DNA of 64,000 nucleotides from Nostoc sp. DedSLP01 (GCA_034530875.2 JAVRCJ020000021.1:64001-128000); one strand, 5' to 3'. Shown: positions 16,318-33,057, counted from the first letter of the stretch. A program made the numbers and translations. Notes: generated by a model from the sequence alone, not told the origin.

Positions 16318-19300
16318 TTGACGAAAAAATTGTTTAAATTTTTAAACGAATTGTTACTTTTGGGATTAGCACTTGCGGCACTAACTCCTTTAATTTTTCA
16401 AGAAAGCCGCGTCATCGCCGAAATTACACCTGACAGCACCTTAGGAAATGAATCATCAATCGTAACCGAAGGGGTTGAAATTAAAGGGGGAATAGGTAAT
16501 CGCATTGATGGTGGTGCAGTCCGAGGAGCAAATCTATTTCACAGTTTTAGGGAATTTAGCATTGATGATGGGCAACGGGTTTACTTTTCTAACCCCACAG
16601 GAATAGAGAATATCCTCACGCGAGTTACAGGTAATAACCCCTCGAATATTTTGGGAACGCTGGGGGTTTTGGGTAATGCCAATCTGTTTTTTATTAACCC
16701 CAACGGCATCTTATTTGGTAAAAATGCAAGGTTAGATATTGCAGGTTCCTTTGTAGGAACAACAGCAAATGCTATTCAATTTGGGAATCAGGGTTTTTGG
16801 AACGCTTCAACCCCGGAAATTACCCCTTTGCTAACTGTAAATCCTTCAGCATTATTCTTCAATCAAATTCCCAGGGGAACTATCGAAACCAGAGCGATCG
16901 CACCTACCGGTTTAGATGCCTCAGGAGAGGAGACATTTGGTTTGCGGGTTGGCGATAATCGCAGTTTACTACTTTTGGGCAGTGACATCAACCTGAATGG
17001 AGGCAGCTTGAACGCCTTGGGGGGTAGGATTGATTTGGGTGGATTGGCAGCACCGGGAAGTGTGGAGTTGAAGTTTGCAGGTAACAATTTGAGTATGAGC
17101 TTCCCTGATGGCGTACCAAGAGCAGATGTTTCACTTAGCAATAATGCCAAGCTCAATGTTACAGCCGAAAATGGTGGTAGTATCGCGATCGCGGCTCGAA
17201 ATATCGACGTTGCAGGAGAAAGCATCATACAAGCCGGAATCGGCTTTGGCTTAGGAAATTTTAGCAATCAAGCTGGAGAAATTACCCTCAATGCCACTGA
17301 TTTAATTACATTAAGCCAGTTGAGTACAATTCAAAACACAGTTGAGCAAAATGCTACAGGTAATAGTGGTGATATTAAGGTCACCACAGGTTCATTTTCT
17401 ATTAGTGATGGCTCTCAAGTAATTGTTAGTACTCTGGGACAGGGAAATGCAGGTAATGTCACAATTCAAGCTCGTGACACGGTTACACTTGATGGACTAA
17501 ATAGTGAATATTACTCTACCAAAATAGTTAGCAATATTGCTCGAAAAGGTGTAGGTCAGGCAGGAAATATTAACATTCAAACCGGATCGCTTTCAATGAG
17601 GAATACTGCTTTATTAGATTCCGGTACTGCTGGCCAAGGAAGTGCAGGTAATATTACTATTCAAGCTCGTAAAGCAGTTTTATTAGATGGAAGTGACATA
17701 GCAAGCGAGGTATCAAGCCGTGCAATATTCGGTAAAGGAGGAAATATTGAAATTGAGGCAGATTCGCTTTCAGTTATCAATGGCTCTCAACTAAGTACTA
17801 GCAGCTATGGAAACGGCGATGCAGGCAATGTCACGATTCAAATTTATGGGGTAAATGGCGTTGCTTTTGATGGCGTTAGTAGTGAAGATGGATTTCCGAG
17901 TGGAGCATTCAGCACTATGTCTAACAATGGAGTAGGCAAAGGAGGAAATATCCAAATCGCGGCAGAGTCGCTGTTTGTGAGTAATGGCGCTCAACTACAG
18001 GTGGCGACAATTGGAAAAGGAGATGCAGGTACTATCACCATTAAAGCTCGCGATCGCATTTCTTTCAACGGTACTGCTAGTTATGGATTACCCAGTGGAG
18101 CTTTCAGTTCTGTGGAACCGGAAGCAGTAGGTAAGGGAGGAAACATTTATATTACTACAGGATCGCTGTCGGTTAGCAATGGTGCTGGGTTAAACTCCCA
18201 AACTCGTGGCATCGGAGATGCGGGGAATATTTCGATTCAAGCTCAAGATTGGGTTTTATTTGATGGAGTCAGTTTATTAGACTTCAGCAGTGGGGCATTT
18301 AGTACGGTAGCTTTGGGTGCCCAAGGTAAGGGGGGAGATATTGAGATTATTGCCAATTCGCTCTCAATTAGTAACCGCGCGCGTTTAAATGCTCAAACCG
18401 ACAGTATGGGTAAAGCAGGCAATATTCTAGTGACAGCAAATACTTTTGATGCTGCTAGTGGTGGAGAACTTCTCACATCAACAAGCAGTAGTAGTAATGC
18501 CGGAGATATTACTTTGAGAATACGCGATCGCCTCACTTTAACAGGCGATAGTACCGGAATTTTTGCCAATACAACTGCCAATGCTACTGGCAACAGTGGT
18601 AACATTTTCATCGACCCCAAAGTGATGATGATTCGCGATGCAGCTAAAATTGCTGTTGATAATCAAGGTACTGGTATCGGCGGTACTATTGATATTCAAG
18701 CCGGAAAATTAACTCTCGATAACCAAGCTGTAATTTCTGCGGAAACAGCGAGTAATACTGGTGGCGATATTCAACTCCAACTCACAGACTTGTTGCTATT
18801 AAGGCATAACAGTACCATCTCTACAACTGCGGGAACTACTCAAGCGGGTGGTAATGGAGGTAACATTACCATCAACTCTCCATTTATTGTTGCTGCGGCT
18901 TTGGAAAATAACGATATTACCGCCAATGCTTTTAGTGGTAATGGTGGCAGAGTTGATATTACTGCTCAAGGAATCTTTGGACTAATACCCCGTAGTCGTT
19001 CGGATCTAGAGAGACTATTGGTAACTAATGACCCCGAGCAATTAAATCCGCGATCGCTTCCTACAAGTGACCTCACTGCCATTTCCCAAGCCAATCCCTC
19101 ATTCAGCGAACAGGTAGTTATTAATACAGCAGATGTAGACCCCAGTAACGGACTCGTGAATTTGCCGACAAATATAGTAGATGCCTCCCAACTCATTGCC
19201 CAAACCTGTAGAACTGGTGGAGAAGCAACAGCCAATCAAAAAAGTGAATTTATAGTCACTGGACGCGGAGGTTTGCCGCCTAACCCCATTGAGCCACTTA

Positions 19301-19530
19301 GCAGCGATGCCATTTGGCAAGATTTACAAGCTCATGCTTTGCTCAATGAAAAGGTAAGCGGCTCCCAAGAAGAGGTAAATTTAATTTCAGAAACAGCGAA
19401 TGCGATCGCTGAAGCTCAAGGCTGGGTAACTAACCCTGATGGTACTATTACCCTGGTAGCTCAAGCTCCCACTGCTACCCCTCACAACTCTTCACTCACA
19501 CCTGTTAGTTGTCCGGTTGCCCAAAACTAA
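16318..19530 (+). CDS. Filamentous haemagglutinin N-terminal (TPS) domain exoprotein
   Basis: Signal peptide; NLFHSF..F, NILTRVTG, NLFFINPNGI; G.AGNI.I beta-helix repeats; C-terminal FIVTGRGGLP and EAQGW. Confidence 0.9.
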   Translation: MTKKLFKFLNELLLLGLALAALTPLIFQESRVIAEITPDSTLGNESSIVTEGVEIKGGIGNRIDGGAVRGANLFHSFREFSIDDGQRVYFSNPTGIENILTRVTGNNPSNILGTLGVLGNANLFFINPNGILFGKNARLDIAGSFVGTTANAIQFGNQGFWNASTPEITPLLTVNPSALFFNQIPRGTIETRAIAPTGLDASGEETFGLRVGDNRSLLLLGSDINLNGGSLNALGGRIDLGGLAAPGSVELKFAGNNLSMSFPDGVPRADVSLSNNAKLNVTAENGGSIAIAARNIDVAGESIIQAGIGFGLGNFSNQAGEITLNATDLITLSQLSTIQNTVEQNATGNSGDIKVTTGSFSISDGSQVIVSTLGQGNAGNVTIQARDTVTLDGLNSEYYSTKIVSNIARKGVGQAGNINIQTGSLSMRNTALLDSGTAGQGSAGNITIQARKAVLLDGSDIASEVSSRAIFGKGGNIEIEADSLSVINGSQLSTSSYGNGDAGNVTIQIYGVNGVAFDGVSSEDGFPSGAFSTMSNNGVGKGGNIQIAAESLFVSNGAQLQVATIGKGDAGTITIKARDRISFNGTASYGLPSGAFSSVEPEAVGKGGNIYITTGSLSVSNGAGLNSQTRGIGDAGNISIQAQDWVLFDGVSLLDFSSGAFSTVALGAQGKGGDIEIIANSLSISNRARLNAQTDSMGKAGNILVTANTFDAASGGELLTSTSSSSNAGDITLRIRDRLTLTGDSTGIFANTTANATGNSGNIFIDPKVMMIRDAAKIAVDNQGTGIGGTIDIQAGKLTLDNQAVISAETASNTGGDIQLQLTDLLLLRHNSTISTTAGTTQAGGNGGNITINSPFIVAAALENNDITANAFSGNGGRVDITAQGIFGLIPRSRSDLERLLVTNDPEQLNPRSLPTSDLTAISQANPSFSEQVVINTADVDPSNGLVNLPTNIVDASQLIAQTCRTGGEATANQKSEFIVTGRGGLPPNPIEPLSSDAIWQDLQAHALLNEKVSGSQEEVNLISETANAIAEAQGWVTNPDGTITLVAQAPTATPHNSSLTPVSCPVAQN

Positions 19531-22109
19531 TGTTGCACTCTCAGATGGCAAAAAAACAGCCGAAATTTTGGCGTCAAGTTCTAGCTTTTGTGCTTTGTGT
19601 GCTGTTGGGGATGAGTCTAACTCTGGTGCTGGAATTGAGACAAGTCATAGCTGCTGCCGTTCAACCTCTGGCTGTCAAAACACAATATTTATCGAACTCA
19701 AATTTAATTCAACAAGGTAGAGAACTCTACCAAGCGCAACGCTATGCTGAAGCGATAAATATTTGGCAGTTGGCACTCAAAGCAGAAAAAAATCCATCTT
19801 CTCAAGCTATGGTGCTAAATTATCTCTCTTTGGCTTATCAGCAATTGGGACAGTGGCAGCAAGCAACCCAGACAATTAGCTCTAGCTTGAATTTAATTCA
19901 AAACTCCCAGACAACACCGCAAACAAAACTCATCCTTGCCCAAGCACTCAACACTCAAGGAAGTTTGCAATTAGCCGAAGGTAAAACTGAACAAGCTCTT
20001 AATTCTTGGCAACAAGCAACTAACATTTATACCGTAGCAGGTTATACACAAGGCAGAATTGGCAGTTTAATTAATCAAGCTCAAGCCCAACAAGCTCTAG
20101 GGCTTTACCTGCAAGCTCGTAAAACCCTAGCAGAAGTAGAACGAACGCTAGAGAATCAACCAGACGAACAGTTAAAAACTACAGAATTACGTAGCCTGGG
20201 CAACGTTCTCAAATCTGTGGGTGCTTTTGCTGATTCTCGCAGAGTTTTGCAGCAAAGTTTGCAGTTGCTACAAAATAGCGCGAGTAAATCACCACAAGAA
20301 TTGAGTGCTACTTTACTCAGCTTGGGTAATACAGCTTATGCCCAAGGCGATAAAGAGGCAGCATTAGCATACTACGAACAAGCTGCAAATATTGCGCCAG
20401 CAAGCACTATAACTCAGATTCAAGCTCAAATTAATCAACTTCAATTATTAATAGCAACTGGACAAACAAAAAAAGCCGAGAATCTTTCCCTAGAACTCCA
20501 GTCAAAGTTTAATAATGTTTCTCCCAGTCGCTCAACAATTTACTCTCGCATCAACCTTGCGAAAAGTTTAGTGAAACTGGGAACTCAAGAAAACACTGCA
20601 TCTGCTAAACTACTGGCAACAGCAATTCAAGAAGCTGAAAATTTAAGCGATCGCCAAGCACAGTCTTATGCTTTGGGTTATCTAGGCGGACTCTACGAAC
20701 AAACCGAGCAGTGGTCAAATGCTCAAGATTTAACCCAGCAGGCTTTGCAAATAGCTCAAGCCATTAATGCGCCACATATTGCTTATCAATGGCAATGGCA
20801 ATTAGGACGGATTTTAAAAGCCCAAGGTGCAATCAAGCAAGCAACATCAGCTTATGAAGTCGCCTTTACAACATTAAAATCTCTGCGCAGCGATTTAGTG
20901 GCGATTAACAGTGACATTCAATTTTCCTTCCGGGAAGCTGTAGAGCCTGTATATCGCGAATACGTACAATTACTTTTAAATCAAGATCCTAGCCAGGAGC
21001 AACTAAAACAAGCGCGTCAAGTAATTGAATCGCTACAATTAGCAGAACTTGACAACTTTTTTCGTTCAGCTTGTCTCCAAGGACAGATAGTACCGATTGA
21101 CCAAATTCAACAGTCGGCAGCAGCAGTCATTTATCCCATCATTTTGCCAGACCGACTAGAGGTAATTCTCAGTTTACCTCAGCAAGGACTACGCCACTAT
21201 GCCACGAAAATAAGCCAAGCTGAAGTAGAAGAAGTCATACAGCAACTCAGAGAAAATTTAGAAAAACCCTTCACAACTCCTGAGGGAAAATTATTATCTA
21301 CAAAAGTTTATGACTGGTTAATTCGCCCTGTGGAAGCAGAACTAGCTGAAAATGAGGTGAAAACATTGGTTTTTGTCTTAGATGGTGCATTGCGGAACGT
21401 GGCGATCGCAGCTTTGTATGATGGTAATAATTATTTGGTAGAAAAATACAGCATAGCCCTAACACCCGGCTTAGAGCTATTAGGGCCGCGTCCTTTGCGT
21501 CAAAGCAAGCTAAAAACTTTGGCTGCTGGACTCACAGAAGCACGACATGGATTTACTTCCTTACCAAATGTCAGCGACGAATTAAAAACAATTGAGTCGG
21601 AAGTCCCTAGCGAAGTTCTCCTGAATCAGACATTTACTAGTTCAGCGCTACGAAAACTCATTGACTCAGTACCGTTTTCTGTGGTGCACCTAGCAACTCA
21701 CGGTCAATTTAGTTCCAATGCCGATGAAACCTTTGTGTTGGCTTGGGATAAACCAATTAAACTCAACGAATTAAAAGACTTGCTTCGCAGCAGAGAGCAA
21801 ACTACACCTGAGCCAATTGAATTACTCGTTCTTAGTGCTTGCGAAACTGCCGATGGAGACAAACGCGCCGCTTTAGGGCTGGCTGGTATGGCAATTCAAG
21901 CAGGCGCACGCAGTACCTTAGCCTCTCTTTGGAGTTTAGATGATGAATCTGGCGCGCGTCTAATTAGCCAATTTTATAAAGAGCTAGCGACTAAGCAAGT
22001 GACAAAGGCAGAAGCTTTGCGACAAGCGCAACTCTCACTGTTAAAAGACCCAGATTATCGCCATCCGGTGCATTGGGCGGCTTACGTTTTGCTGGGAAAT
22101 TGGCTGTAG
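19530..22109 (+). CDS. TPR-CHAT domain protein (caspase-like protease)
   Basis: N-terminal hydrophobic segment, TPR helices, VHLATHG and LVLSAC catalytic motifs, HPVHWAAY end; ATG overlaps upstream stop (TAATG). Confidence 0.92.
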   Translation: MLHSQMAKKQPKFWRQVLAFVLCVLLGMSLTLVLELRQVIAAAVQPLAVKTQYLSNSNLIQQGRELYQAQRYAEAINIWQLALKAEKNPSSQAMVLNYLSLAYQQLGQWQQATQTISSSLNLIQNSQTTPQTKLILAQALNTQGSLQLAEGKTEQALNSWQQATNIYTVAGYTQGRIGSLINQAQAQQALGLYLQARKTLAEVERTLENQPDEQLKTTELRSLGNVLKSVGAFADSRRVLQQSLQLLQNSASKSPQELSATLLSLGNTAYAQGDKEAALAYYEQAANIAPASTITQIQAQINQLQLLIATGQTKKAENLSLELQSKFNNVSPSRSTIYSRINLAKSLVKLGTQENTASAKLLATAIQEAENLSDRQAQSYALGYLGGLYEQTEQWSNAQDLTQQALQIAQAINAPHIAYQWQWQLGRILKAQGAIKQATSAYEVAFTTLKSLRSDLVAINSDIQFSFREAVEPVYREYVQLLLNQDPSQEQLKQARQVIESLQLAELDNFFRSACLQGQIVPIDQIQQSAAAVIYPIILPDRLEVILSLPQQGLRHYATKISQAEVEEVIQQLRENLEKPFTTPEGKLLSTKVYDWLIRPVEAELAENEVKTLVFVLDGALRNVAIAALYDGNNYLVEKYSIALTPGLELLGPRPLRQSKLKTLAAGLTEARHGFTSLPNVSDELKTIESEVPSEVLLNQTFTSSALRKLIDSVPFSVVHLATHGQFSSNADETFVLAWDKPIKLNELKDLLRSREQTTPEPIELLVLSACETADGDKRAALGLAGMAIQAGARSTLASLWSLDDESGARLISQFYKELATKQVTKAEALRQAQLSLLKDPDYRHPVHWAAYVLLGNWL

Positions 22110-22295
22110 TAAAAATAATTTTTTATATCACGCAGAGTCGCACAGGCAAGGCAGCGACGGGTACGCAGGGGGTTTCCCCCATGAGCGACTGCCGCGCAAA
22201 GAAGAGAACGCAAAGAAGGACTTTTGCAAGAGGTCTAATGAGCGTGGCGCGTCTGAATCCTCCACGCTCAAGATTGCTGAATTCTGTATTCTTCT

Positions 22296-22688
22296 TTATG
22301 TCGTCTTTGTAGCGCCGGGTTTTGCATCTGCGTTTGATTTTAACCGCGTGATGAGAGCTTTACGAACGCGATCGCTTTTCCTTACCGCACCTGCTAGTTC
22401 GTATTCCCGGCTATCTTTGCCATACTTTGACGCTACACCACTAACTAAGCGTTCTGAAGTCTCGCGCATGTTCTTTTCCAGGGCTTCTATTTTCCCCTTT
22501 GCCGAATCGAGGGTGTTTAGTAACTGATTATATTGCTTGAGTTCGTTACGTAGTTCCGCAGTTAACTCGTTCAAATACTGCAAACTGACAGAATCACCAA
22601 AATCGAGGCTAGGATCGATTGATTGCAACCCGATTGTCTGCTGTTCTATTTTTTCGAGTACGGAAGAAGTTTTTTTGGGGCGTGGCAT
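22296..22688 (-). CDS. Hypothetical coiled-coil protein (YGKDSREYELAG motif)
   Basis: 130 aa from ATG 22688 (MPRPKK); basic N- and C-termini and a central heptad pattern; resembles a hypothetical family recalled from cyanobacteria. Confidence 0.8.
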   Translation of the reverse strand: MPRPKKTSSVLEKIEQQTIGLQSIDPSLDFGDSVSLQYLNELTAELRNELKQYNQLLNTLDSAKGKIEALEKNMRETSERLVSGVASKYGKDSREYELAGAVRKSDRVRKALITRLKSNADAKPGATKTT

Positions 22689-22832
22689 CAATACATACCT
22701 TTTGCTTAACTTTATTCTTCTAGCGTCTCTCAAAAATATAAGTAGTTGGTTCAGTGAAAATAGCCAAAATCAAGCATTTTTTCCCAAAAAAATTTAATGA
22801 ATAGTTCAGTAATTGCCGTAAAATAATTTACT

Positions 22833-23052
22833 TTGTTAACCAAAGTGCTTGGTTTGTTAAACAAAGTGTTTGTCTTGTTAACGAAAGTGCTTGGTTTATT
22901 AAACAAAGTGCTTGCCTTGTTAACCAAAGTGCTTAGTTTATTAAACAAAGTGTTTGTCTTGTTAACGAAAGTGCTTGGTTTGTTAAACAAAGTGCTTGCC
23001 TTGTTAATCAAAGTGCTTAGTTTATTAACCAAAGTGCTTGCCTTGTTAAACA
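22833..23052. repeat. Tandem array of about 10.5 x 21 bp (consensus TTGTTAAMCAAAGTGCTTGSY)
   Basis: Ten full units plus a partial unit read directly; ends at HIP1 site 23053-23060. Confidence 0.97.
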
Positions 23053-23146
23053 GCGATCGCACATATTATCTGTTAGCTTAAAATTACGGCATTGCTTTTA
23101 TTACACCGTTTTTCATCTATTTGAACCACTTGAACCACAATTTTCG

Positions 23147-23358
23147 GTAGGGGCTTTACAGCGTTCAAACTCTTGCCCCACAATCGTTTTACCCCACCCC
23201 CAACCCCTCCCCTTGGCAAGGGGAGGGGCGATTTTGGCTTTAGACAAAATCGGGGTGGGGTAACGCGGATTTTGATGGTAAGTGAGATAGCTGAATATCA
23301 CATCTTTACAAGGGTTTCGCGTTAAGTTGACACCAATGCACAGCTGTAAAGCCCCTAC
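23147..23358 (+). mobile_element. Family B MITE (left TIR missing) nested inside a GTAGGGGCTTTACAGC palindrome
   Basis: 16-bp perfect inverted arms at 23147-23162 and 23343-23358 enclose a sequence similar to 15740-15919. Confidence 0.75.
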
Positions 23359-23489: not shown

Positions 23490-23528
23490 ATTTGAGTGCA
23501 TAAACCTCAAAAGTGAAACGTGTAACTC
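23490..23528 (+). promoter_or_regulatory. Conserved promoter-like motif, copy 1 (TGCATAAA-N14-CGTGTAAC)
   Basis: 36/39 identical to 26005-26043; ends 63 nt before ATG 23592; preceded by an A6T7 tract. Confidence 0.7.
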
Positions 23529-23591: not shown

Positions 23592-25709
23592 ATGGGAATT
23601 TATACTGGCGACAACGGCAATAATATCTTTCTGGGAACTAATGGTGAATCTTGGACACTCAACGGACAAGATGGCAATGACAATCTAACTGGTGCAGATC
23701 GAGACGACCTAATTACTGGTGGAGCTGGTAACGACAATTTGCTTGGTGCTGCTGGTAATGATTATCTTTATGGTAATGCTGGCTATGACTACTTGTATGG
23801 TAACGGCGGCGATGACAAGTTAATTGACGAAGATGGTTATGTAGATGGTGGTGCAGGCATTGATACGCTAGTAGCTAACTACGGTGCCTACGGAAGTCCC
23901 AGTCTTGGTGTAATCGTAGGATCTGATAGTATCACCAATATTTACCCAGGATTCTTAGGACTCAAGTTCACTAATATTGAAAAATTTCTCATCATAGGCT
24001 CACAATTGCTAGATACCCTGCGTGGTGGTGCTAATAGTGATAGCCTGTATGGTGAAGGTGGTAACGATCGAATTGAAGGTGGCGCTGGTCTTGATTATCT
24101 TTATGGTGGCGCTGGTGATGATACCGTAATTGATACAGATGGTTCTGTAGATGGTGGTGCAGGTATTGACACATTAATAGCCAACTACAGTGTGTTGAAT
24201 AATGGTGCTGGTGTAGAAATGAAACCAAGCGCTATTGTTAACCGGGCGAATAATAATCCACTACTCAATTATACTAATTTTGAGAAATTTAACGTTACAG
24301 GCACACAATACGCAGATATTCTGCGTGGTGGTGCTAGCAGTGATATCCTTAAAGGCGGTGCTGGTAAAGATCAAATTGAGGGTGGCGCTGGCTTTGATTA
24401 TCTTTATGGTGAGGCTGGGGATGATACCTTAATCGATACAGATGGTTCTGTAGATGGTGGTGCAGATGTTGACACACTAGTAGCCAACTACGCTGATTTG
24501 AATAGTGGTGCTGGCGTACACGTAGGATATTTGGGACAAAGTGCCATTTTCAGCCGGCAAACAGGATTATCACTACTCAATTACACTAGTATTGAACAAT
24601 TTAACATCACAGGTACACAATACGCAGATGTCTTAAGCGGCGGTGCTAAGGGTGATACCCTCAAAGGCGGTGCTGGTAACGATCAAATTGAGGGTGGCGC
24701 TGGCTATGATTATCTTTATGGTGAAGCTGGGGATGATACTATTATTGATTCAGATGGTCTTGGTTATGTAGATGGTGGTGCAGGTTTTGACACATTAATA
24801 GCTGACTACACTAATTTAAATAATGGTGCTGGTGTAGACGTGAGAGAAAATGGCATCTTTAGCCGCCTGAATAATAATCCACTACTTAGTTACACTGGTA
24901 TTGAAAAACTCGATATCACAGGCACACAATACGCAGACACTCTCCGTGGTGGTGCTGGCAATGATTTCCTCTACGGCGCTGCTGGCAACGATAGCCTCAA
25001 TGGCGGTGCTGGCAATGATATCCTCAAAGGCGGTACTGGCAATGATACCCTCAACGGCGGTAGTGGCTATGATGTTGTTAACTATGAAGGAAATTATACA
25101 GACTATGCAATCTCTTTTCTGAGCAATGGCGATTTACAAGTAATTGATAAGGTCACTACTAATGGTAACGAAGGTATCGATATTCTCAGTGGTGTAGAAT
25201 TCATTACTGCACAAGACGGAAATTTTGCAGTCCTTACAGGTGGTACAGGCAATGATGTGCTAACGGTGGTAGCACCAAACTATTGGGCTTTCCTCTTCGG
25301 TGGTGACGGAGCCGATAGCCTAACTGGTGGAACTGGCTACGATAACCTCACTGGCGGCAATGGTAATGATACTTTAGTAGGTGGCAATGGTAATGATACT
25401 CTAGTAGGCGGTGCTGGCAACGATATTCTTAATGGTGGTGCTGGCAATGATATTCTTACTGGCGGTTTAGGTGCAGATAAATTTGTGTTTAACTCGAAGG
25501 TAGAAGGCTTAGACATCATCAAAGACTTTAGTATGGTTGAAGGTGACAAGATTCAGATTTCTAAAGCTGGTTTTGGTGGTATCGCTGACTTCAAGAATTT
25601 CAGCTACAACGATGCTACTGGTGCTTTGTTGTTCCAAGGAACTCAATTCGCCACCATTGAGAATAAGCCTGCTAATTTTGCAATCAGTACAGATATTCAG
25701 CTTGTTTAA
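23592..25709 (+). CDS. RTX-type calcium-binding repeat protein
   Basis: Many GGxGxDxLx nonapeptides; four larger internal repeats; C-terminal GADKFVF...DIIKDF; no Sec signal. Confidence 0.92.
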   Translation: MGIYTGDNGNNIFLGTNGESWTLNGQDGNDNLTGADRDDLITGGAGNDNLLGAAGNDYLYGNAGYDYLYGNGGDDKLIDEDGYVDGGAGIDTLVANYGAYGSPSLGVIVGSDSITNIYPGFLGLKFTNIEKFLIIGSQLLDTLRGGANSDSLYGEGGNDRIEGGAGLDYLYGGAGDDTVIDTDGSVDGGAGIDTLIANYSVLNNGAGVEMKPSAIVNRANNNPLLNYTNFEKFNVTGTQYADILRGGASSDILKGGAGKDQIEGGAGFDYLYGEAGDDTLIDTDGSVDGGADVDTLVANYADLNSGAGVHVGYLGQSAIFSRQTGLSLLNYTSIEQFNITGTQYADVLSGGAKGDTLKGGAGNDQIEGGAGYDYLYGEAGDDTIIDSDGLGYVDGGAGFDTLIADYTNLNNGAGVDVRENGIFSRLNNNPLLSYTGIEKLDITGTQYADTLRGGAGNDFLYGAAGNDSLNGGAGNDILKGGTGNDTLNGGSGYDVVNYEGNYTDYAISFLSNGDLQVIDKVTTNGNEGIDILSGVEFITAQDGNFAVLTGGTGNDVLTVVAPNYWAFLFGGDGADSLTGGTGYDNLTGGNGNDTLVGGNGNDTLVGGAGNDILNGGAGNDILTGGLGADKFVFNSKVEGLDIIKDFSMVEGDKIQISKAGFGGIADFKNFSYNDATGALLFQGTQFATIENKPANFAISTDIQLV

Positions 25710-26004: not shown

Positions 26005-26043
26005 ATTTGAGTGCATAAAGTTCAAAAGTCAAACGTGTAACTC
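26005..26043 (+). promoter_or_regulatory. Conserved promoter-like motif, copy 2
   Basis: 36/39 identical to 23490-23528; preceded by an A/T tract. Confidence 0.7.
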
Positions 26044-26283
26044 TGTGGAGGGTAAAGTAAATAATCCCAACCAACAAACTGGAGGTTGGAGTCATCGAAA
26101 CTACTTTAAATACTCTCCACCAAAGTTGAAGCTAGGGAGTTATTATTTCTGCTCCATGCAGATGTGTATTGGTAGTAAATCATCAGCACTATGAACAATT
26201 TAACTACTAATTTTGCCTAGCTCAACAGCAAGTCAGTTTATCAACAATTATACCGTTAACTACTCAACACAGAAACCTAAAAC

Positions 26284-26988
26284 ATGACTACTAATTACAC
26301 TTCTAAGTCTGCTTTTTCATCTCAACAATCTACTCGTAAGGAAAAATTTATGTCCCGCAAACCATTAAGTTTAATTGCAACACTGATTGGTGTTAGCGTA
26401 CCAGTATTTTCATTAAATTTTGCTCAACCTGCAATGGCACAAGATTACACTAATTGCAGAAAAGTTGATGGCGTAAATGTATGTGCCCAAAAAACATTTG
26501 CTGGTTACGAACTTTATGCCAGTAATCCTTCTCAACCAAGCCAAAATCCCAACGCTTTAGGTCAATACCAATTGTTTTGGGATGGAGTGCAAGTTGGTAT
26601 GGAACCGAGTTGGACACTGCAACAAGCGATCGCTAATTTAGAATTTAATAAGAAAAGCTATCCTAACAAGAAAGTTGAAGGCTTATTTAACGGTCAAAAA
26701 GTCGGCTACGAATTACTCTGGGATGGCGTGCGAGTAGGGTTTGAACCCGGTTGGACATTGCAACAAGCGATCGCTAATTTAGAATTTAATAAGAAAAGCT
26801 ATCCCAACAAGAAAGTTGAAGGCTTATTTAACGGTCAAAAAGTCGGCTACGAATTACTCTGGGATGGCGTGCGAGTAGGGTTTGAGCCAGGTTGGACACT
26901 GCAACAAGCGATCGCTAATTTAGAATTTAATAAGCAAAGCTATCCCAATAAGAAAGTTGAAGGCTTATTCAACGGTAAACAACTGTAA
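26284..26988 (+). CDS. Secreted protein with three 47-aa tandem repeats
   Basis: Signal peptide ending PAMA-Q (start may be ATG 26350); 141-bp near-identical DNA repeats from 26566 to 26985. Confidence 0.85.
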   Translation: MTTNYTSKSAFSSQQSTRKEKFMSRKPLSLIATLIGVSVPVFSLNFAQPAMAQDYTNCRKVDGVNVCAQKTFAGYELYASNPSQPSQNPNALGQYQLFWDGVQVGMEPSWTLQQAIANLEFNKKSYPNKKVEGLFNGQKVGYELLWDGVRVGFEPGWTLQQAIANLEFNKKSYPNKKVEGLFNGQKVGYELLWDGVRVGFEPGWTLQQAIANLEFNKQSYPNKKVEGLFNGKQL

Positions 26989-27013
26989 TCAAAATTGATG
27001 CGATAATCAATAA

Positions 27014-27047
27014 AAAACAGCCCTAGTAAAATTACTAGGGCTGTTTT
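27014..27047. terminator. Putative bidirectional intrinsic terminator
   Basis: AAAACAGCCCTAGTAA / TTACTAGGGCTGTTTT inverted repeat between convergent genes. Confidence 0.7.
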
Positions 27048-27296
27048 AATGTACTGAAAAAATTGCCTTATATAGCAAGTAACTATGGACTGGAGAGAAA
27101 ATAAATGTAGCGACTGTCTTGAAAGTCAAGACAGTCGCTACACCTGCTAATGATAAGTACTCAACTGGACATCATATAAAACTCATATTTGAATTCTGAA
27201 AAAAATCAGTACACCCAAACAAGACTTCTTTCCTACTCCCCACTCCCTACTCCCTGTCTACGCAAGTAAATTCACAAATCAAACCAGATTCCTATA

Positions 27297-28079
27297 TTAT
27301 TTAGCAACACAACAAGATGCGATCGCATCTGTACCAACCTGAACTAAATTAACTTGTTTGAGTAGCTCAATCCAAGCTGATGCAATTTTTGGATCTTTGT
27401 CTTTGGTATTTTGTAAACTTTCTCCTAAACTTGTTAAAGCATCAAACCAAACACCATGTTGTGCAAAAAAACTTGCTTTTGCTAATGGTGTTTTAGCTGC
27501 TGCAAGTTGTTGTTGCCATGATGGGCTGATAGCTACTTGTGTCATTGAACCTTGCACGTAAACAGCAGATGACGCCTTATCAGGATCGCAATAAATCGAA
27601 AAAGTCCAACGATAAGATTTACCAGCAATTAAGGGTTTTGTAGGTTGTACGGGTATGCTAAAAATTCCCGATCGCGTTTCTGGTGGATTAAATTTTGTAT
27701 GATAAACGTAATTATCTGCTTCGTCTTGAATTACAAATTCTATAGGGAGTTTGGGTGTTAATTTATCAGGGACAAAAAACCAAAATGTCGGGGTTTGAGA
27801 TGCCGATTGTCCCCATACTAAATCTTTATTTCCTGTCTTAGTTATAGGTACTAAAGCTGTCAGCGTTTCATACTGCTTACAGGAACCACGACTACCTCCA
27901 CCTCTACGCCTACCTGTGGGTTCTCCTGGCTTTTCCTGCGCTCTTGGTGCAATATATGTGATTTTGCCTGTAGGTGTTAGGGTTTGAGCCTGTACATACC
28001 AATTTCCAGATGGGTTAAAAATACTCAAGGTAAGCGCAGATATCAGGGTGGTAGTATGAAACCAAAGTACCTTTTTCAT
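27297..28079 (-). CDS. DUF928 domain protein (exported)
   Basis: Signal peptide; GGGSRG.C, LTALVP, PTFWFFVP, Y.WTFSI.C, G.WFDAL motifs. Confidence 0.9.
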   Translation of the reverse strand: MKKVLWFHTTTLISALTLSIFNPSGNWYVQAQTLTPTGKITYIAPRAQEKPGEPTGRRRGGGSRGSCKQYETLTALVPITKTGNKDLVWGQSASQTPTFWFFVPDKLTPKLPIEFVIQDEADNYVYHTKFNPPETRSGIFSIPVQPTKPLIAGKSYRWTFSIYCDPDKASSAVYVQGSMTQVAISPSWQQQLAAAKTPLAKASFFAQHGVWFDALTSLGESLQNTKDKDPKIASAWIELLKQVNLVQVGTDAIASCCVAK

Positions 28080-28170
28080 AATAGAAATTAATTAGCGATC
28101 GCCAAAGTAACTTATTAGGATTTTTAATTTTTGAGGATTAACACCTAATTTATTACTACACTTCACTTGC

Positions 28171-30510
28171 CTATAATTTCTGGAATTTTTTGCTGATAAA
28201 GATAAATATAGTACTACTCAGTAGCAAAGAAATCATTGGTGGTACTAAGGGTATCCAGCCGCCTTGAGTTAATAGAATTAAGCAAAATCCAAATAACGTA
28301 ACTGATGCTGCGATTACAGAAATACTGATGTAAGCTATTTTGCGAAGATACCAAGCTAGTAGGCTACCTGTCAAAGACCATACCCAAACCCAGCAAATAT
28401 CAGCCCATTGCCTCCAAACCCATAACATGGGTCTTTGGTCTAAAGCAGCACTGAGTATTTCACTGACCATTTGTGCCTGAATTATTACGCCTGGAATGAT
28501 ATCTGAAGGGTTTTTTCCATCTGGTGTATACCAGTAATCGCTACTACTGTTACTGGTGACGCCAATCAGAATAATCCGGTTTTTCAGGGCATTTGGATTA
28601 ACTTGTCCGTTCAAGACTTGGCTGAGGGTGACTTGGGGTGCGATCGCTTGCACGGAGGGCGAAAAACGGTAATTTAGTAAAATCTGACTACCTTGGGCAT
28701 CTATGGACTGATAACCGCCAGCCCGATTTTGTAACTGTGGGAAAGTTTTATTTCCCAGTTGCAAATCCCAATTTTCGGTAAATTTGGCTGTAATTCCCTG
28801 TTTTTTCAAGTAGAGAAATGCTAGCTGCACGCTAAAGGCAGAAGCAGCAGTACAAGTTGACGAAATTGGGTTGGGAGTCATCGCCAACAAATGACGGCGC
28901 AGTACGCTATCGTTGTCTTCCACAAAATCGCTAAAACCTAACCGTGTTTCTGGTATTTCCGGCGGGGGTGCAATGCCTGTGGGGTCGTATTTGGGATCGG
29001 CACGTTTACAAATTGCAAAAAAGCGATCGCTTTTTTGCATCCGCTTGGCTAGTTCTGGGTAGTTGGCGCTGACTGGAAAATCTCGGTATATATCTAAACC
29101 TATAGCTGCTGGCTGGTATTGTTCCAGTTTAGTTAGTAAGAGATTGAAATACTTGTCGGATAACGAACCTTGCCGCGGTTCTTGTCCTTGCGCTTGAATA
29201 TCCTGGTCGGTGACAGTTATTACCAAAAGCCGCGAGTCCGGTTGTTCTTTTGGTCGCAGTTGCATTAATTGGTCGAATGCATCTAATTCTAGGGCTTGCA
29301 GCCCACCGAATAACCGTATGAATACGACAATTAAACTCACGCTGAAGCTATTAAAAAAAACTAGCGGTAACTGCCTCAAATTCGGACGCGGCAGATATAA
29401 ACCCAACCTCTGACCGCAGATATCCTGCCAAGTGGGGGAAATTTCTGCTGGGTTTTGGCAAATCACAGGTAGCCAAGTAGCGCAGGGAAAATCATGTTCT
29501 AGAGATTGTAATCTTTCTCTGGCTTCCCTAACGGCTGCATATAAAGTTTTACCCTGGGAAAAAAGTGCCAAAAAGTGCTTCAAAAATTCCTGTGCTACCC
29601 CGTCTGGTACGGGTTCGCGCATGACAATTACCTGGGGTAAATGCAAATCGGCTAAATCTTGCGCTAATCCCAAACCATCGCAAGAGTTAAAAATTGCTAA
29701 TTGCAAACCTTGAGCGATCGCCTTTTGTAAACCATACTTTAATTGGTCAATAGTTAAACTTTCCCCAGAATTGAGCATCATTCGCCCTTTGCCTTGGCTG
29801 GAACTATGCCCCGCAAAAAAAAGAATGTCCCAGCCTGACTTCCATAATTGTTCTGTGAGTTGGGAACGGTTGGGTTCGACTAAAAACTTGAGTTCCGTAT
29901 GAGGTAATTGTCGCAGTAAATTTTGGTCTTTTTCGATATCGATACCGTGGCGATCGCCTAAAATTGCTAAAATCCTGACTTTACCTTTACTCTTTTGAGG
30001 ATTTGTCTTCACAGAACGCGTATATTCTGGCGGACTCAGGGCAATTTCAGCTTGTGGATAATCGCTAAAAAAATGCCACAGACACCAAGGAAGCTTTAAA
30101 ACCTGCTCAGATTCAGCAGTAATTATGCAGCGGATTTCTTCTTTTGGTGAAAGTTGAGTGCGTAGTTTGCGGTCAATATTGAGAAACAGCGAACTATTTA
30201 GCCATGTATTTAGACTGTCTTGTAATTCTTGGCAGAGGTTGTCAAACTCTGCTTGGGAAATATGCGTAACATCTTCTTCATCAATTTCAAAGTCTGCAAT
30301 ATTGCCACTGCGCCAACCCAAACTAGCATACAAAGCTGTATACATTTGTTGCCAACGTTGATAAAGATACTCCAATTGTGGTGCAGCAGGCAATCCACCT
30401 GTAAACTGCATGGGAGTAGGAGTATCCGTTTGCCAAAGTTGAGCTGTGACCGTGGGAAAGCCTTGGCGTAAGTTTCCTTTTCCTAAGTTAAGGACGATTT
30501 GTTTACTCAT
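28171..30510 (-). CDS. CHAT (HetF-type) plus CHASE2 domain membrane protein
   Basis: FFAGHS and AIFNSC dyad motifs, TM helix, CHASE2 motifs (IGLDIYRD, GV.IQAQMVS), three C-terminal TMs. Confidence 0.9.
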   Translation of the reverse strand: MSKQIVLNLGKGNLRQGFPTVTAQLWQTDTPTPMQFTGGLPAAPQLEYLYQRWQQMYTALYASLGWRSGNIADFEIDEEDVTHISQAEFDNLCQELQDSLNTWLNSSLFLNIDRKLRTQLSPKEEIRCIITAESEQVLKLPWCLWHFFSDYPQAEIALSPPEYTRSVKTNPQKSKGKVRILAILGDRHGIDIEKDQNLLRQLPHTELKFLVEPNRSQLTEQLWKSGWDILFFAGHSSSQGKGRMMLNSGESLTIDQLKYGLQKAIAQGLQLAIFNSCDGLGLAQDLADLHLPQVIVMREPVPDGVAQEFLKHFLALFSQGKTLYAAVREARERLQSLEHDFPCATWLPVICQNPAEISPTWQDICGQRLGLYLPRPNLRQLPLVFFNSFSVSLIVVFIRLFGGLQALELDAFDQLMQLRPKEQPDSRLLVITVTDQDIQAQGQEPRQGSLSDKYFNLLLTKLEQYQPAAIGLDIYRDFPVSANYPELAKRMQKSDRFFAICKRADPKYDPTGIAPPPEIPETRLGFSDFVEDNDSVLRRHLLAMTPNPISSTCTAASAFSVQLAFLYLKKQGITAKFTENWDLQLGNKTFPQLQNRAGGYQSIDAQGSQILLNYRFSPSVQAIAPQVTLSQVLNGQVNPNALKNRIILIGVTSNSSSDYWYTPDGKNPSDIIPGVIIQAQMVSEILSAALDQRPMLWVWRQWADICWVWVWSLTGSLLAWYLRKIAYISISVIAASVTLFGFCLILLTQGGWIPLVPPMISLLLSSTIFIFISKKFQKL

Positions 30511-30519
30511 AATTTATGT

Positions 30520-30678
30520 CACGCAGAGACGCTCCAGACGCAGAGAGTAAGAGTTGAGGAGAGTTTATTTTTGAGTTTCTGAGCAACGTCAAAACTCTTT
30601 ATCCTCTTTGCGCCTCTCTCTTGAAAAGTTCAGATCGCCGGAAGCCGGCGCTCCGACTTTTCGCTGCGTCTCTGCGTG
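30520..30678. repeat. Composite inverted-repeat element (CACGCAGAGACGC...GCGTCTCTGCGTG)
   Basis: 13-bp terminal inverted arms; related left end near 22129. Confidence 0.65.
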
Positions 30679-30691
30679 AAACAATACCCAT

Positions 30692-31837
30692 TTAACTTTC
30701 AAACTCCTCCATAAAATTGAAATCATCTAAAACAACCTGAAGACTAAACCGTGTATTTTGAGGACATTTAAATCGTTTGAGTTGAATTGAATTATCTGTT
30801 TCCCTTGCTTGCACTGACTGCACAATTTCTCCGGAAGCAGAAATCAATGCCAAACTAATATTTCTAGGGAGATAGAAATTGCGTTCTTTAGGATACAGTT
30901 GAGCGCGGATTCCTACTCTACCATCTATTTCTGCCGTCAATGTCAACATTAACACTACAGCTTGATTGTTATTTGGTAACTCAATTTCCCTAACTCGTTG
31001 GATTGACTGCTCAGCTGTATCGTTAACCTGACGGAAGCTAAAGGCAAAATCTGGTTGCGTACCCAAGTAACTTTCTATTGTTTGCCAGCTATCTGCAACT
31101 ATATTTTGCAACCACTGACGCAAGTTAACAAGTGCTGGCTTCTGTGTAGTAAATCTTTGCGGCCAGTCTTCCCTATTTAATAAGGCTCCCCAAATTTCAA
31201 AAGGCAATTCCAAGCGAGGATTAGTAATTGTTGGACTTGTTAATCTTTGCCAGAGATTTTCTACTTGAGTAGCTGATAAAACAGGTAAAGGAGCCAGAGC
31301 TGTTTGTGTTTGTTCTTCAGGATATAGTTGACGTACTACCCAAAGCACATTTAAATCCTCAATCATTTGAGTAGCATCTAATGAGTAAGTCCGTTCTTGG
31401 TAATCGTAGCTACCTTGATTTTTTAATTGTTCGTGGGTAGTATAGCCCCAAATTCTCATCCACTCACCATCGGGATTAACTTGTACTGCTAAATAATAAT
31501 CTCCTACCCATCGAGGAATATCTATCCATTCTTGGGGTACAGAAAATTCTCTAGTTTCTAAACTTTTATCTGGAATTAAAATTAAACGTTTTGTATCGAT
31601 ATTTATAGCAGTGCCGTTGACCAATTCCCAACTGATTGGCAATGTGTCAATAGTAGCTTCTGGTACGTATTCTGCTTGCAACCAAGGCAAAAAAGTACTG
31701 AGGCATACTTGATTGAGAAAAACATTCCAACGGCTACGGGGACTAACGCTAGACTGGCTTTGCTGCCAAGATTGATTTTGAACTTCAGGAGATACCTCCA
31801 ACCACAGCTGAGTCGGGGGAACACAAAATGATGACAT
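30692..31837 (-). CDS. DUF1822 family protein
   Basis: WELVNGTAI, VPQEWIDIP.W.GDYYLAVQV, WGYTTH..LK, NLRQWL motifs. Confidence 0.88.
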   Translation of the reverse strand: MSSFCVPPTQLWLEVSPEVQNQSWQQSQSSVSPRSRWNVFLNQVCLSTFLPWLQAEYVPEATIDTLPISWELVNGTAINIDTKRLILIPDKSLETREFSVPQEWIDIPRWVGDYYLAVQVNPDGEWMRIWGYTTHEQLKNQGSYDYQERTYSLDATQMIEDLNVLWVVRQLYPEEQTQTALAPLPVLSATQVENLWQRLTSPTITNPRLELPFEIWGALLNREDWPQRFTTQKPALVNLRQWLQNIVADSWQTIESYLGTQPDFAFSFRQVNDTAEQSIQRVREIELPNNNQAVVLMLTLTAEIDGRVGIRAQLYPKERNFYLPRNISLALISASGEIVQSVQARETDNSIQLKRFKCPQNTRFSLQVVLDDFNFMEEFES

Positions 31838-31839
31838 AA

Positions 31840-33057
31840 CTACTGCTCCTTTGAGGGCTGAGGTTGCAAATTACTGAAATAATTTTGTAACCATTCCTCT
31901 AATACTGCACTAATATGTTTAACCACGTTGGAAGTCGGAGAAATATGCATTGTTTCTTGACTCCATTTGGCGATCGCTAGTAATAAAGATTCTCTCGTTT
32001 TCGCCAATTGCCGCGATACTTGATATTGCTGGATTTGCTGTTGTTTGGCAATTTGTTGTTGAGTCAGACCTTGTTGATAGTACAATTGCAGCAATTCTTG
32101 CGATTGTGGAGGCAACTTTCCCAAGGTAGTAATTAATAAATTCTGGATTTCTTGTTGTTGATTTTTTTGAGTTTCCGCTTCTTCTTTAGCGATTAAATCT
32201 GCCAGTAAAGATTCATTTTGAGTAGTATCTGGTAAATCATCTTGTAATTCACTATCAGCTTGACCTGTTTTCGGCGCGTTGAGTGAAGAAACCACAGGAT
32301 ATAAATAAGAACGTGCGTGTTTTGCGGATAACAGCAGCCATTTTTCTAGAGTTTGGGCGTTGGATTCTGTGCTTGGTGGGTTAAGTTGCGTTAAGCGGTC
32401 GCGGTTGTAGAGTTGAGCAATTGCTTCCCAGGTATCTTGGTTTGGTCTTTGCAACTTCCGCACACCTGGCGATTTCCCCAAAATGTAACCATCGACAAAA
32501 CATTTCCAAGCTAACAAGTAACAAGCAATAGTTTCATCTGTTAGCCCAGCATTTTGCAAAGATTCCTGTAGTCGTTTGCGGCTTAACTTCAGTAATAATG
32601 CCCAATCGTTACAAAAATCTATTTCTTGTTTTTGCCGCAAAGCATCACGAATTACATTGCCAAAAGCCACATTGCTGTAGCTTTTGAGACTGGCTTTTTG
32701 GTCAGGATCGCAGGCTTTGAGGATTTTTGGTAGTTCTGCGATCGCTATTTGAAAACAATCAGACAAGGTACACTGGACGCTAGCAATTTGAGGAATCGTC
32801 CTTGTTGCTGACCAATAACAAGTTTCTTGCAAATAAGCTGATAGATGTGCCTCAGCTAGAGAGTTAGGCTGATTTTGCCAATTTTTATGCCAGTAAATTG
32901 CCCAAAAATTTTCTGAGTTTTTCGTTTCTGATATCTGTAGCAAGCGATTTTGGATACTGCGCCGTAGTTTGGCATCATATACCCAACAGTTAAAGCGATC
33001 GGCTTCAAATTGAATAAAGGTTGAAAATATTTCTAAGATTTTCTGGCGAGGACGCAT
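31840..33057 (-). CDS. Atypical sigma-70 family RNA polymerase sigma factor (cyanobacterial group 3/4-like)
   Basis: HLSAYLQE.CY, region-2-like LKSYSNVAFGNVIRDALRQ, region-4 HTH (LLQLYYQQGLTQQQIA...VSRQL); ATG 33057. Confidence 0.85.
   Translation of the reverse strand: MRPRQKILEIFSTFIQFEADRFNCWVYDAKLRRSIQNRLLQISETKNSENFWAIYWHKNWQNQPNSLAEAHLSAYLQETCYWSATRTIPQIASVQCTLSDCFQIAIAELPKILKACDPDQKASLKSYSNVAFGNVIRDALRQKQEIDFCNDWALLLKLSRKRLQESLQNAGLTDETIACYLLAWKCFVDGYILGKSPGVRKLQRPNQDTWEAIAQLYNRDRLTQLNPPSTESNAQTLEKWLLLSAKHARSYLYPVVSSLNAPKTGQADSELQDDLPDTTQNESLLADLIAKEEAETQKNQQQEIQNLLITTLGKLPPQSQELLQLYYQQGLTQQQIAKQQQIQQYQVSRQLAKTRESLLLAIAKWSQETMHISPTSNVVKHISAVLEEWLQNYFSNLQPQPSKEQ

Follow-up and report, generated by a model that had tools for sequence, protein, structure and literature searches.

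The locus described here raises the question of whether a membrane-bound caspase-like protease, a soluble protein of family DUF1822 and a sigma factor, encoded side by side, form a single signalling switch, and which genes such a switch would control. It lies in a stretch of 64,000 nucleotides from Nostoc sp. DedSLP01 (GCA_034530875.2 JAVRCJ020000021.1:64001-128000, handled as G000:C21:64001-128000), which we call the window and to which all plain positions refer. The 8.57-Mb genome carries hetZ, patU and hetF elsewhere and therefore belongs to a heterocyst-forming cyanobacterium. One strand of the locus encodes a TPS (FHA-like) exoprotein and a tetratricopeptide repeat (TPR)-CHAT protease. 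The other encodes the sigma factor, DUF1822, a receptor protease with CHAT and CHASE2 domains, and a DUF928 protein, and further genes are enclosed between the two blocks. The initial annotation had proposed that an extracytoplasmic signal activates the receptor CHAT domain, which cleaves DUF1822 acting as an anti-sigma and releases sigma to transcribe the enclosed exoprotein genes. A self-contained envelope-to-transcription switch of this type is the best explanation overall, and we regard it as fairly probable. The locus is real. Its core gene set belongs to a catalogued class, and for its working principle the same phylum offers a solved precedent. The sequence-level predictions made here (promoter, regulon, cut-site candidate, interface and protease swap), all of them computational, are additions to that class.

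All open reading frames (ORFs) of the initial annotation sit at the positions it gave. Its domain assignments, the TAATG at 19528-19532 that joins the TPS stop to the TPR-CHAT start, the 2 nt that separate the sigma stop from the DUF1822 ATG, and the His/Cys dyads of both CHAT domains were likewise confirmed in the sequence. The dyad of TPR-CHAT is ATHG H731 / SACE C778, numbered from the TTG at 19509 where its longest ORF begins (the likely ATG overlaps the TPS stop). That of the receptor is AGHS H235 / NSCD C277, and the receptor has no further output domain. The earlier inventory was incomplete, because it did not mention a third promoter-motif copy inside the sigma gene and a third enclosed ORF of 145 residues.

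The initial annotation expected these genes to stay linked across genomes, and the neighbourhood survey bore this out. The sigma factor was found in 49 of 60 genomes of the family. A first set of 60 regions of 20 kb, taken from the top of the list with long contigs preferred, contained 55 sigma genes, and DUF1822 directly followed sigma in 54 of these 55 loci. The second set comprised the best 80 of 583 DUF1822 relatives and is thus biased to the window's type. Removal of four known duplicates left 76 loci (L223, a probable fifth duplicate, was kept), with sigma in 70, EACC2-CHAT in 66, CHASE2 in 62, DUF928 in 33, a TPR-CHAT-type CHAT in 25, TPS in 19 and C14 in 5; the TPS and TPR-CHAT counts are limited by the flanks available.

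A quick IQ-TREE search divided the sigma factors into five clades (A-E), with the window in clade A (11 rows, support 99). Clades A and C sit with EACC2-CHAT-CHASE2, and clade B with EACC2-CHAT-CHASE2 or TPR-CHAT. In clade D, 15 of 16 sigma loci are divergent from a C14 caspase gene with an intact His-Cys dyad; judging from this gene order, one sigma clade uses a C14 caspase in place of CHAT. A caspase-fold protease was present within 20 kb of 39 of the 55 sigma genes. Of note, the clade-D caspase has a second, degenerate caspase-like domain (L046, L048-L050, L053-L056 and others), and its C-terminal helical domain recurs in adjoining kinase-like proteins.

In the window's own genome there are seven DUF1822 loci, of which four include a full-length long sigma, together with twelve DUF928 genes, 35 CHAT matches, 17 TPS-like genes and 19 TPR-CHAT-like genes, many of the last two groups distant from DUF1822. 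The nearest named relative of its DUF1822 is that of Nostoc paludosum FACHB-159 (96% identity). Plasmid alpha of Nostoc PCC 7120 carries a clade-B-type module (PCC7120DELTA_RS29905-RS29950) with an embedded TGCATA-N16-CGTA and an upstream TGCATA-N15-CGTA site before a PPC-domain gene; its sigma may be alr7311, one of the sigma factors of PCC 7120 according to PMC11119718. On pNPUN03 of N. punctiforme lies a C-type module in which TGAATA-N17-CCAA precedes a small gene. Across the phylum, DUF1822 was matched in 98 of 151 sampled genomes; roughly half of these are small genomes with a single weak match. One family with genomes of ~2 Mb (f49, G101-G225) gave a weak match (E 1e-5 to 1e-12), nearly always single, in 49 of 57 genomes. 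Short DUF1822 proteins of 307-322 residues that lack the helical middle occur in three modules (L153:16135-16770, L155:5270-6019 and L156:9612-10580). In two of these a sigma-like gene of 211-249 residues replaces the long sigma, and in one no sigma is adjacent; no promoter motif stood out in an unbiased motif search of the short-sigma modules.

The sigma factor matched TIGR02937 with 109.5 bits (cut-off 42.9) and Pfam Sigma70_r4; Pfam Sigma70_r2 was not matched. Its structural model aligned with region 2 of RpoS (Z 9.8, root-mean-square deviation (rmsd) 2.5, 96 aligned residues) and with region 4 of SigmaE (Z 7.8, rmsd 1.4, 69 aligned residues), and all six Foldseek matches at E < 0.001 were sigma-factor chains. 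The model of DUF1822 (mean predicted local distance difference test (pLDDT) 82.9) consists of an alpha/beta domain (residues 4-177), a helical middle, a linker (261-275) whose pLDDT falls under 50 around Arg269, and an Ig-like C-terminal domain (277-381). Hydropathy and Pfam searches revealed neither a hydrophobic segment nor a CHAT domain in DUF1822. Its description as a TPR protein was rejected, as no TPR family of Pfam matched and the model combines alpha/beta, helical and beta-sandwich parts. Foldseek with the DUF1822 model returned nothing at E < 0.001. Sequence searches of the PDB gave just weak sigma4 matches for sigma; neither a relative of DUF1822 or the receptor protease nor a HetZ chain came up.

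The binding of sigma by DUF1822, as postulated in the initial annotation, was supported by the modelled complex. Its interaction prediction score from aligned errors (ipSAE) was 0.82 (0.79, 0.82 and 0.82 in separate runs), compared to 0.00 for the best of three controls. The runs had at least 76% of contacts in common, with a partner pLDDT of at least 79. In the calibration, 116 of 157 solved pairs and 2 of 215 mismatched ones reached this mark; these counts apply only roughly to the alignments used here. In the model, residues 4-177 of DUF1822 contact sigma residues 108-162, 188-202 and 332-383, including the recognition helix that would read the -35 box. Coverage of this helix fits the expectation for an anti-sigma, and DUF1822 is quite probably the anti-sigma of the adjacent sigma factor.

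The same DUF1822 domain resembles PD-(D/E)XK nucleases (DpnI: Z 7.1, rmsd 3.7, 141 aligned residues; Hjc: Z 6.9), and Kaur et al. place such neighbourhoods among counter-invader systems (PMC8195603). The locus might then be an anti-invader system with DUF1822 as a latent effector, for example a nuclease unmasked by the caspase, with sigma as its regulator or as a second output. We consider this improbable: Z values under 8 may reflect just a common arrangement, the (D/E)xK motif is not seen in the DUF1822 family consensus, the domain in question also makes the modelled sigma interface, and the genes predicted as targets encode exported structural proteins or peptides, not defence functions.

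Those targets were predicted from the promoter. The initial annotation had noticed a motif shared upstream of two enclosed genes, and the two sites indeed have 35 of 38 bases in common (from 23491 and 26006) next to an A/T tract. TGCATA-N16-CGTG occurs three times in the window, compared to 0.06 expected, and none of 100 shuffles reached three. This bipartite motif, in full TGCATA-N16-CGTGTAA, was found 14 times in the 60 sigma regions (12.6 per Mb) versus 0.6 per Mb in the window's own genome, and with the 16-nt spacer only. In an unbiased word-pair search of clade A it came out on top, its 12 sites standing before 11 different gene starts. The cargo genes behind it in orthologous modules are unrelated (an RTX gene, a peptidoglycan-binding protein and several signal-peptide proteins). 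In one genome (G014) the site is retained by the RTX orthologue even though this gene lies on a different contig, where it follows TPS and TPR-CHAT genes. Of 21 strict sites in nine whole clade-A genomes, 13 fall in modules. A profile of 19 sites from other genomes exceeded 17 bits at only two places in the 8.6-Mb genome, both of them in the window. Comparative genomics thus predicts a regulon of exactly two genes here, that of the RTX-repeat protein (95 nt from promoter 1) and that of a 234-residue exported protein. This lends computational support to the earlier proposal that the enclosed exoprotein genes are sigma targets, and the factor very probably reads the TGCATA-N16-CGTGTAA promoter.

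Other clades have variants of this promoter: TGCATA-N15-CGTA in B, TGCATA-N16-CCTA in E and GCATAA-N17-CTAT in D. By these computational comparisons, a bipartite promoter with a spacer of 16-17 nt tracks the sigma clade, clade D excepted. Region 4.2 of sigma tracks the -35 box, reading SQ[PAS]T in 32 of 34 loci with xxAAT and Q-Y in 29 of 29 loci with xxCATA. The motif might alternatively be the operator of another transcription factor or the relic of a local duplication, in which case the enclosed genes would not be sigma targets. A block of 60 nt, spacer included, is common to the two window sites, as a duplication would give; outside about -25/+50 their identity is at background. We nevertheless judge this alternative very improbable, because the motif recurs with divergent spacer sequence before non-homologous genes in other genera, is always sense-oriented with a fixed spacer length, and changes with sigma clade and region 4.2. 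No paper on this promoter was found in a literature search that excluded most subscription journals.

Both targets are presumed to be secreted, the RTX protein from its repeats (it has no hydrophobic N-terminus) and the 234-residue protein from an N-terminal hydrophobic segment. In profile searches the RTX protein gave repeat matches only, with no catalytic or toxin domain above cut-off. The three 47-residue repeats of the other protein matched no known family, and 14 longer relatives had no common named domain over the repeat. Autoregulation of sigma from a promoter upstream of its own gene was rejected, since no site was found there.

The third copy of the motif falls within sigma's own coding sequence, 112 nt ahead of the ATG of DUF1822. 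At the same codons of 59 sigma genes, TGCATA was present in 51 and TGAATA in 6, and one unplaced gene had neither box. The tetramer 16 nt further was CGTG in 11 of 11 (A), CGTA in 5 of 5 (B), CCAA in 6 of 6 (C), GGTA in 15 of 16 (D) and CCTA in 16 of 20 (E). In synonymous conservation the -10 codon took first place among 228 columns in A and among 292 in E, and third place among 298 in D; common ancestry raises the values but does not obviously affect the ranks. The embedded motif of clade C was recorded before the upstream scan, which found TGAAT-N16-18-CCAA at 21 upstream sites in 5 of 7 clade-C regions, at none in A, B and D, and at 4 in E. In the second set the embedded motif could be parsed in 63 loci. 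An A-type upstream site accompanied 10 of 20 TGCATA/CGTG loci but 0 of 27 C-type loci, and a C-type upstream site 10 of 27 C-type loci but 1 of 20 TGCATA/CGTG loci. The embedded copy is predicted to be a feedback promoter for DUF1822.

Most clade-C upstream sites form tandem arrays of 3-5 copies with a period of ~72 bp before small precursor-like genes of 110-140 residues, and these arrays (L150:8900-10070 = G000:C62; L083, L089, L090, L218) adjoin a C39 peptidase ABC exporter and HlyD. A GCACAA-based candidate motif for clade C was rejected, as it occurred in two genomes only and the embedded motif predicted a better one. A clade-B-like TGCATA-N16-CGTA was also observed at G000:C9:100862, 113 nt before the gene for HetZ-related protein 2 (upstream of the L003 ORF); it may be a chance match, as the pattern has 8 upstream sites in the genome.

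We then consider how sigma might be freed. Arg269 in the disordered linker of DUF1822 was kept in 74 of 75 proteins of the second set and 60 of 63 of the first. The residues around it read F-x-F-R in clades A and C, G-A-R in clades D and E, and G-M/V-R in B, a pattern that matches the protease families only in part. In the heterocyst system, HetF cuts PatU3 (258 residues) after Arg117 (PMC9457339; PMC13342950), and the cross-links between PatU3 and HetZ lie mostly N-terminal to the cut site (PMC13342950). PatU of the Nostoc strain studied here has Tyr-Arg-Ser at the same distance from its end as the cut in PatU3. By analogy, we lean slightly towards cleavage of DUF1822 at Arg269 by the caspase-fold protease.

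On the input side, the receptor has a CHASE2 domain (E 5e-65) with flanking transmembrane (TM) segments, the CHAT domain preceding the first and CHASE2 following it. A conserved N-terminal domain of ~170 residues stands before CHAT (Pfam 192-346) in all 19 aligned proteins, and 64 of 64 have the CHAT cysteine motif. Given the export-like segment of TPR-CHAT and the position of the receptor CHAT ahead of the first TM segment, the former is probably a periplasmic and the latter a cytoplasmic protease. Among 28 loci from other genomes chosen on DUF928 alone, 23 had DUF928 within 1.5 kb of a CHASE2 gene. The CHASE2 neighbours of DUF928 in the window's own genome carry CHAT, nucleotide cyclase, hybrid histidine kinase or AAA domains. 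Because its outputs vary in this way, DUF928-CHASE2 looks like a reusable sensor, often accompanied by TPS and TPR-CHAT. A search of the ESM Atlas with DUF928 returned unnamed clusters only. That CHASE2-DUF928 gates the protease is, in our estimate, evenly balanced. A role of TPS and TPR-CHAT upstream in the pathway, where they would provide a protein cue, is a tentative possibility.

Two observations concern the proteins of this arm. In TPS, the C-terminal domain (window 19080-19530 and 13 paralogues) has two Cys in 14 of 14 and GRGG in 12 of 14 sequences, and is a candidate site for the coupled TPR-CHAT; a TPS-CHAT fusion lies at G000:C1:308511-314024. In one clade-A subgroup (L044, L045, L051, L052, L072 and 11 further loci) an exported CHAT protein of ~465 residues that lacks TPR is encoded directly upstream of sigma; it has no His-Gly motif where one is expected and may be an inactive sensor.

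Taken together, the switch would operate as follows. At rest, the N-terminal domain of DUF1822 would bind sigma and cover sigma2 and the -35-reading helix of sigma4, as in the model. A periplasmic cue, possibly from the exported TPS/TPR-CHAT pair, would be sensed by CHASE2 with its partner DUF928; this is the weakest step. The signal would switch on the cytoplasmic CHAT domain, which would cut DUF1822 after Arg269, and the N-terminal piece would then probably be destabilised and degraded. Free sigma would direct RNA polymerase to the TGCATA-N16-CGTGTAA promoters of the two enclosed genes, and the weaker embedded promoter would supply more DUF1822, perhaps also receptor and DUF928, and so reset the switch.

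Several results weigh against this scheme. The relatives compared are not independent, so all locus counts overstate significance, and the covariation of region 4.2 with the -35 box amounts to one clade split rather than independent events. The strict promoter pattern occurred 23 times across ten whole genomes compared to 20 for a reversed-pattern control; hence the signal lies in location only. An exact upstream copy of a locus's own embedded motif was found in 13 of 63 loci (shuffled mean 5.9, maximum 12 in 2000 shuffles), and in 0 of 18 loci of a Nostoc subclade with embedded TTAATA/CCTA. In clade D the embedded GGTA mismatches the intergenic motif (2 sites), and the embedded site of the window is a weak match to the cargo profile (<17 bits). 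Regarding cleavage, the Ig-like domain beyond Arg269 makes no sigma contact in the model, so a cut alone does not free sigma and a degradative second step must be assumed. The P1' residue is Gln in this DUF1822 and Ser in PatU3. No caspase-fold protease lies within 20 kb of 16 of the 55 sigma genes, mostly of clade E, and nearly all of these loci still keep Arg269. On the input side, motif and profile scans found no target promoter before TPS or TPR-CHAT, which occur in only 19 and 25 of the 76 loci (flank-limited) and also stand beside other CHASE2 receptors. Of 23 CHAT proteins, the 11 shorter ones had no His-Gly motif at the expected place.

Some of these points are accommodated if sigma, anti-sigma and promoter act as described and release proceeds with DUF1822 intact. 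The CHAT protease would then cut itself or another protein, or titrate DUF1822, and Arg269 would be a docking residue. Autopeptidase activation has been proposed by Kaur et al. instead of cleavage of a partner (PMC8195603), trans-autoproteolysis was proposed for the TPR-CHAT domain of DdvA (PMC11506125), and both the protease-less loci and a modelled sigma interface wholly N-terminal to Arg269 agree with such a mechanism. A near-invariant Arg in a disordered linker with clade-variable flanks, however, suits a scissile bond better than a folded interface. The sigma-DUF1822 pair is accompanied by two different caspase-fold families, and the HetF-PatU3 precedent is a cut after Arg (PMC9457339). 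Release with DUF1822 intact therefore appears unlikely.

A further alternative affects only the input arm and is compatible with the rest of the switch, namely that TPS and TPR-CHAT form a separate secretion unit with no signalling role. The missing target promoter and the many copies of both genes elsewhere in the genome point in this direction, as do two genomes (the Anabaena minutissima-like G046, and G014) in which the pair is placed differently or on another contig. On the other hand, synteny between pair and module extends to G015, G057, G037 and several close Nostoc loci; the pair also borders modules of clades B and C as well as the copies in PCC 7120 and N. punctiforme, and travels with DUF928-CHASE2 where the output is a kinase or ATPase. 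We regard a separate secretion unit as somewhat unlikely.

With cleavage of DUF1822 by the receptor retained as the preferred explanation, the results permit a broader and more speculative reading, rather unlikely to hold in full. Cyanobacteria would possess a large, modular family of receptor-caspase/anti-sigma/sigma switches, with HetF-PatU-HetZ as one offshoot. The promoter of each paralogue would be written in the last 40 codons of its sigma gene, making the regulon readable from the gene, and protease (CHAT or C14) and cargo would be interchangeable. The input would be a cascade of periplasmic proteases, with TPR-CHAT watching over a two-partner-secreted fibre and signalling via DUF928 to CHASE2, which would give this orphan domain a protein ligand. 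The gene set is common in larger cyanobacterial genomes, and the predicted promoter, two-gene regulon, cut site and interface make assays simple. If correct, the switch would give cyanobacterial caspase-like proteases a signalling role besides cell death, generalise the HetF-PatU3-HetZ circuit, assign functions to DUF1822 and DUF928, and provide a handle on CHASE2 sensing. Clade-specific sigma/promoter/anti-sigma sets might also be usable as orthogonal tools in the engineering of cyanobacteria. Specialists would not expect the promoter code, the embedded feedback promoter, the cut-site candidate or the protease swap.

The features of the locus are listed in Table 1. The 145-residue ORF was rejected as a sigma target for want of a TGCATA-N16-CGTG motif, was met in just one related locus, and is probably an unrelated insertion. 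Sigma-70 consensus promoters and terminators in the region occurred at chance level. The N-terminus of DUF928 looks like a signal peptide by eye and stays below the hydropathy threshold used. Outside the locus, an ORF at 36557-37909 begins with what we take to be a split DnaE intein's C-terminal half, with DnaE sequence behind it.

Table 1. Features of the sigma/DUF1822 locus in window coordinates
Feature	Coordinates	Strand	Description	Basis
TPS (FHA-like) exoprotein	16318..19530	+	1070 residues; hydrophobic N-terminus; C-terminal two-Cys domain common to paralogues; possible input arm	Pfam TPS
TPR-CHAT protease	19530..22109	+	N-terminal export-like segment; intact His/Cys dyad	Pfam TPR and CHAT; hydropathy
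145-residue ORF	22296..22733	-	8 family members in genome; no target promoter	
Tandem repeat	22832..23049		21 bp x 10.4; upstream of 145-residue ORF; outside switch	
Predicted sigma promoter 1	23497..23525	+	-35 TGCATA, 16-nt spacer, -10 CGTGTAA; A/T tract upstream	46.7 bits
Predicted target 1	23592..25709	+	705-residue RTX-repeat calcium-binding exoprotein	Pfam RTX repeats
Predicted sigma promoter 2	26012..26040	+	Architecture as promoter 1	44.0 bits
Predicted target 2	26284..26988	+	234 residues; signal-like segment; three 47-residue repeats; likely start ATG 26350	
Terminator-like hairpin	27014..27047		15 pairs; between target 2 and DUF928	Consensus match; such sites not enriched over shuffles
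DUF928 protein	27297..28079	-	260 residues; likely exported partner of CHASE2	Pfam
Receptor protease	28171..30510	-	EACC2-like N-domain, CHAT, TM 383-401, CHASE2 393-716, C-terminal TM helices	Pfam; hydropathy
DUF1822	30692..31837	-	Predicted soluble anti-sigma	Pfam; model
Arg269 codon	31031..31033	-	Predicted cleavage site, F-S-F-R/Q, bond after R	Analogy with HetF-PatU3
Sigma-70/ECF (extracytoplasmic function)-type factor	31840..33057	-	405 residues; sigma2, sigma4, insertion between, C-terminal extension	
Embedded promoter copy	31924..31949	-	TGCATA-N16-CGTG inside sigma coding sequence; predicted feedback promoter	

The locus is a member of the class of EACC2-caspase, ECF sigma and DUF1822 neighbourhoods catalogued in 2021 by Kaur et al. 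(PMC8195603), the EACC2 label following the description in that paper. Members share a constant N-terminal alpha+beta domain with a caspase domain behind it; CHASE2 with TM helices is listed as one of the C-termini, and ECF sigma and DUF1822 adjoin. The statement of the initial annotation that no characterisation was known thus holds for experiments, none being found on this module in the literature search, but not for computation, since the three-gene core with CHASE2 had been described. Kaur et al. differ in proposing autopeptidase activation and in calling DUF1822 a TPR protein. The passages of their paper on this class give no promoter, target, cut site or anti-sigma role, and DUF928 is absent from its main text (PMC8195603). 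The supplements of a Nodularia differential RNA-sequencing study mention none of these genes in the parts searched (PMC3610870).

In the DdvS/DdvA system of Myxococcus xanthus, an anti-sigma likewise restrains an ECF sigma, and the proposed trigger is a periplasmic TPR-CHAT domain (PMC11506125). DdvA is a single transmembrane, zinc-binding anti-sigma fused to TPR-CHAT, and its active site is incomplete (PMC11506125). Here, in contrast, the anti-sigma is soluble and the proteases are separate, with full dyads. In Craspase, the TPR-CHAT protease Csx29 cuts Csx30, a protein in complex with RpoE, site-specifically; it is triggered by target RNA of Cas7-11 in the cytoplasm and has no membrane receptor (PMC11127173). 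The ORFs annotated from 12159 to 35625 include no cas gene; no CRISPR search was made of the remaining window or the related loci.

The closest parallel is HetF-PatU3-sigmaHetZ, in which sigmaHetZ is established, activates the patU promoter, and has PatU3 as its likely anti-sigma (PMC13342950). Orthology to hetZ, patU and hetF was rejected, as the genome has its own hetZ-patU and hetF elsewhere. The HetZ model NF037963 exceeded its cut-off for three other genes of the genome and not for this sigma, whose profile resembled that of HetZ over 42-43 sigma4 columns only (E 0.002-0.004). With the HetF model NF045509 the receptor scored 24.4 bits (cut-off 1200; true hetF 1444), and it is 27% identical to hetF over 216 CHAT residues. 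Profile alignment (hhalign) of DUF1822 with PatU was weak (E 0.0008-0.006 over ~60-70 C-terminal columns, probability 6-24%), and a PatU hidden Markov model did not find DUF1822 in the strain's own proteome. Among 1.84 billion representatives, the best 150 of 239 matches of the PatU profile reach down to E 6e-59 only. PatU clusters (0.82) were the nearest non-DUF1822 neighbours of DUF1822 in the ESM Atlas, which is a lead only. DUF1822 is not mentioned in the supplements searched of PMC13342950.

The hetZ gene contains its own promoter consensus, TCCGGA-N17-TGAA. Among 19 loci this site stood 30 nt ahead of the hetZ stop in 11; it was nearby in 5 and not found in 3, which agrees with the reported activation of the patU promoter by sigmaHetZ. 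In these hetZ loci (L001:2601-2627 and 18 others) the -10 of the embedded site coincides in part with the annotated patU ATG, and transcripts from it would give just a shorter product resembling PatU3. The two systems differ in their promoters, in the sensor, which here is CHASE2, and in reach: the HetZ regulon comprises hundreds of genes, whereas two local genes are predicted here. They are alike in the membrane-anchored CHAT protease and in the gene for a soluble anti-sigma directly behind that for an ECF-type sigma of ~400 residues with insertions (PMC9457339; PMC13342950). In both, the anti-sigma would be cut after an Arg in mid-protein and have a sigma-dependent promoter, as reported for HetF-PatU3-sigmaHetZ and as predicted for the switch described here.

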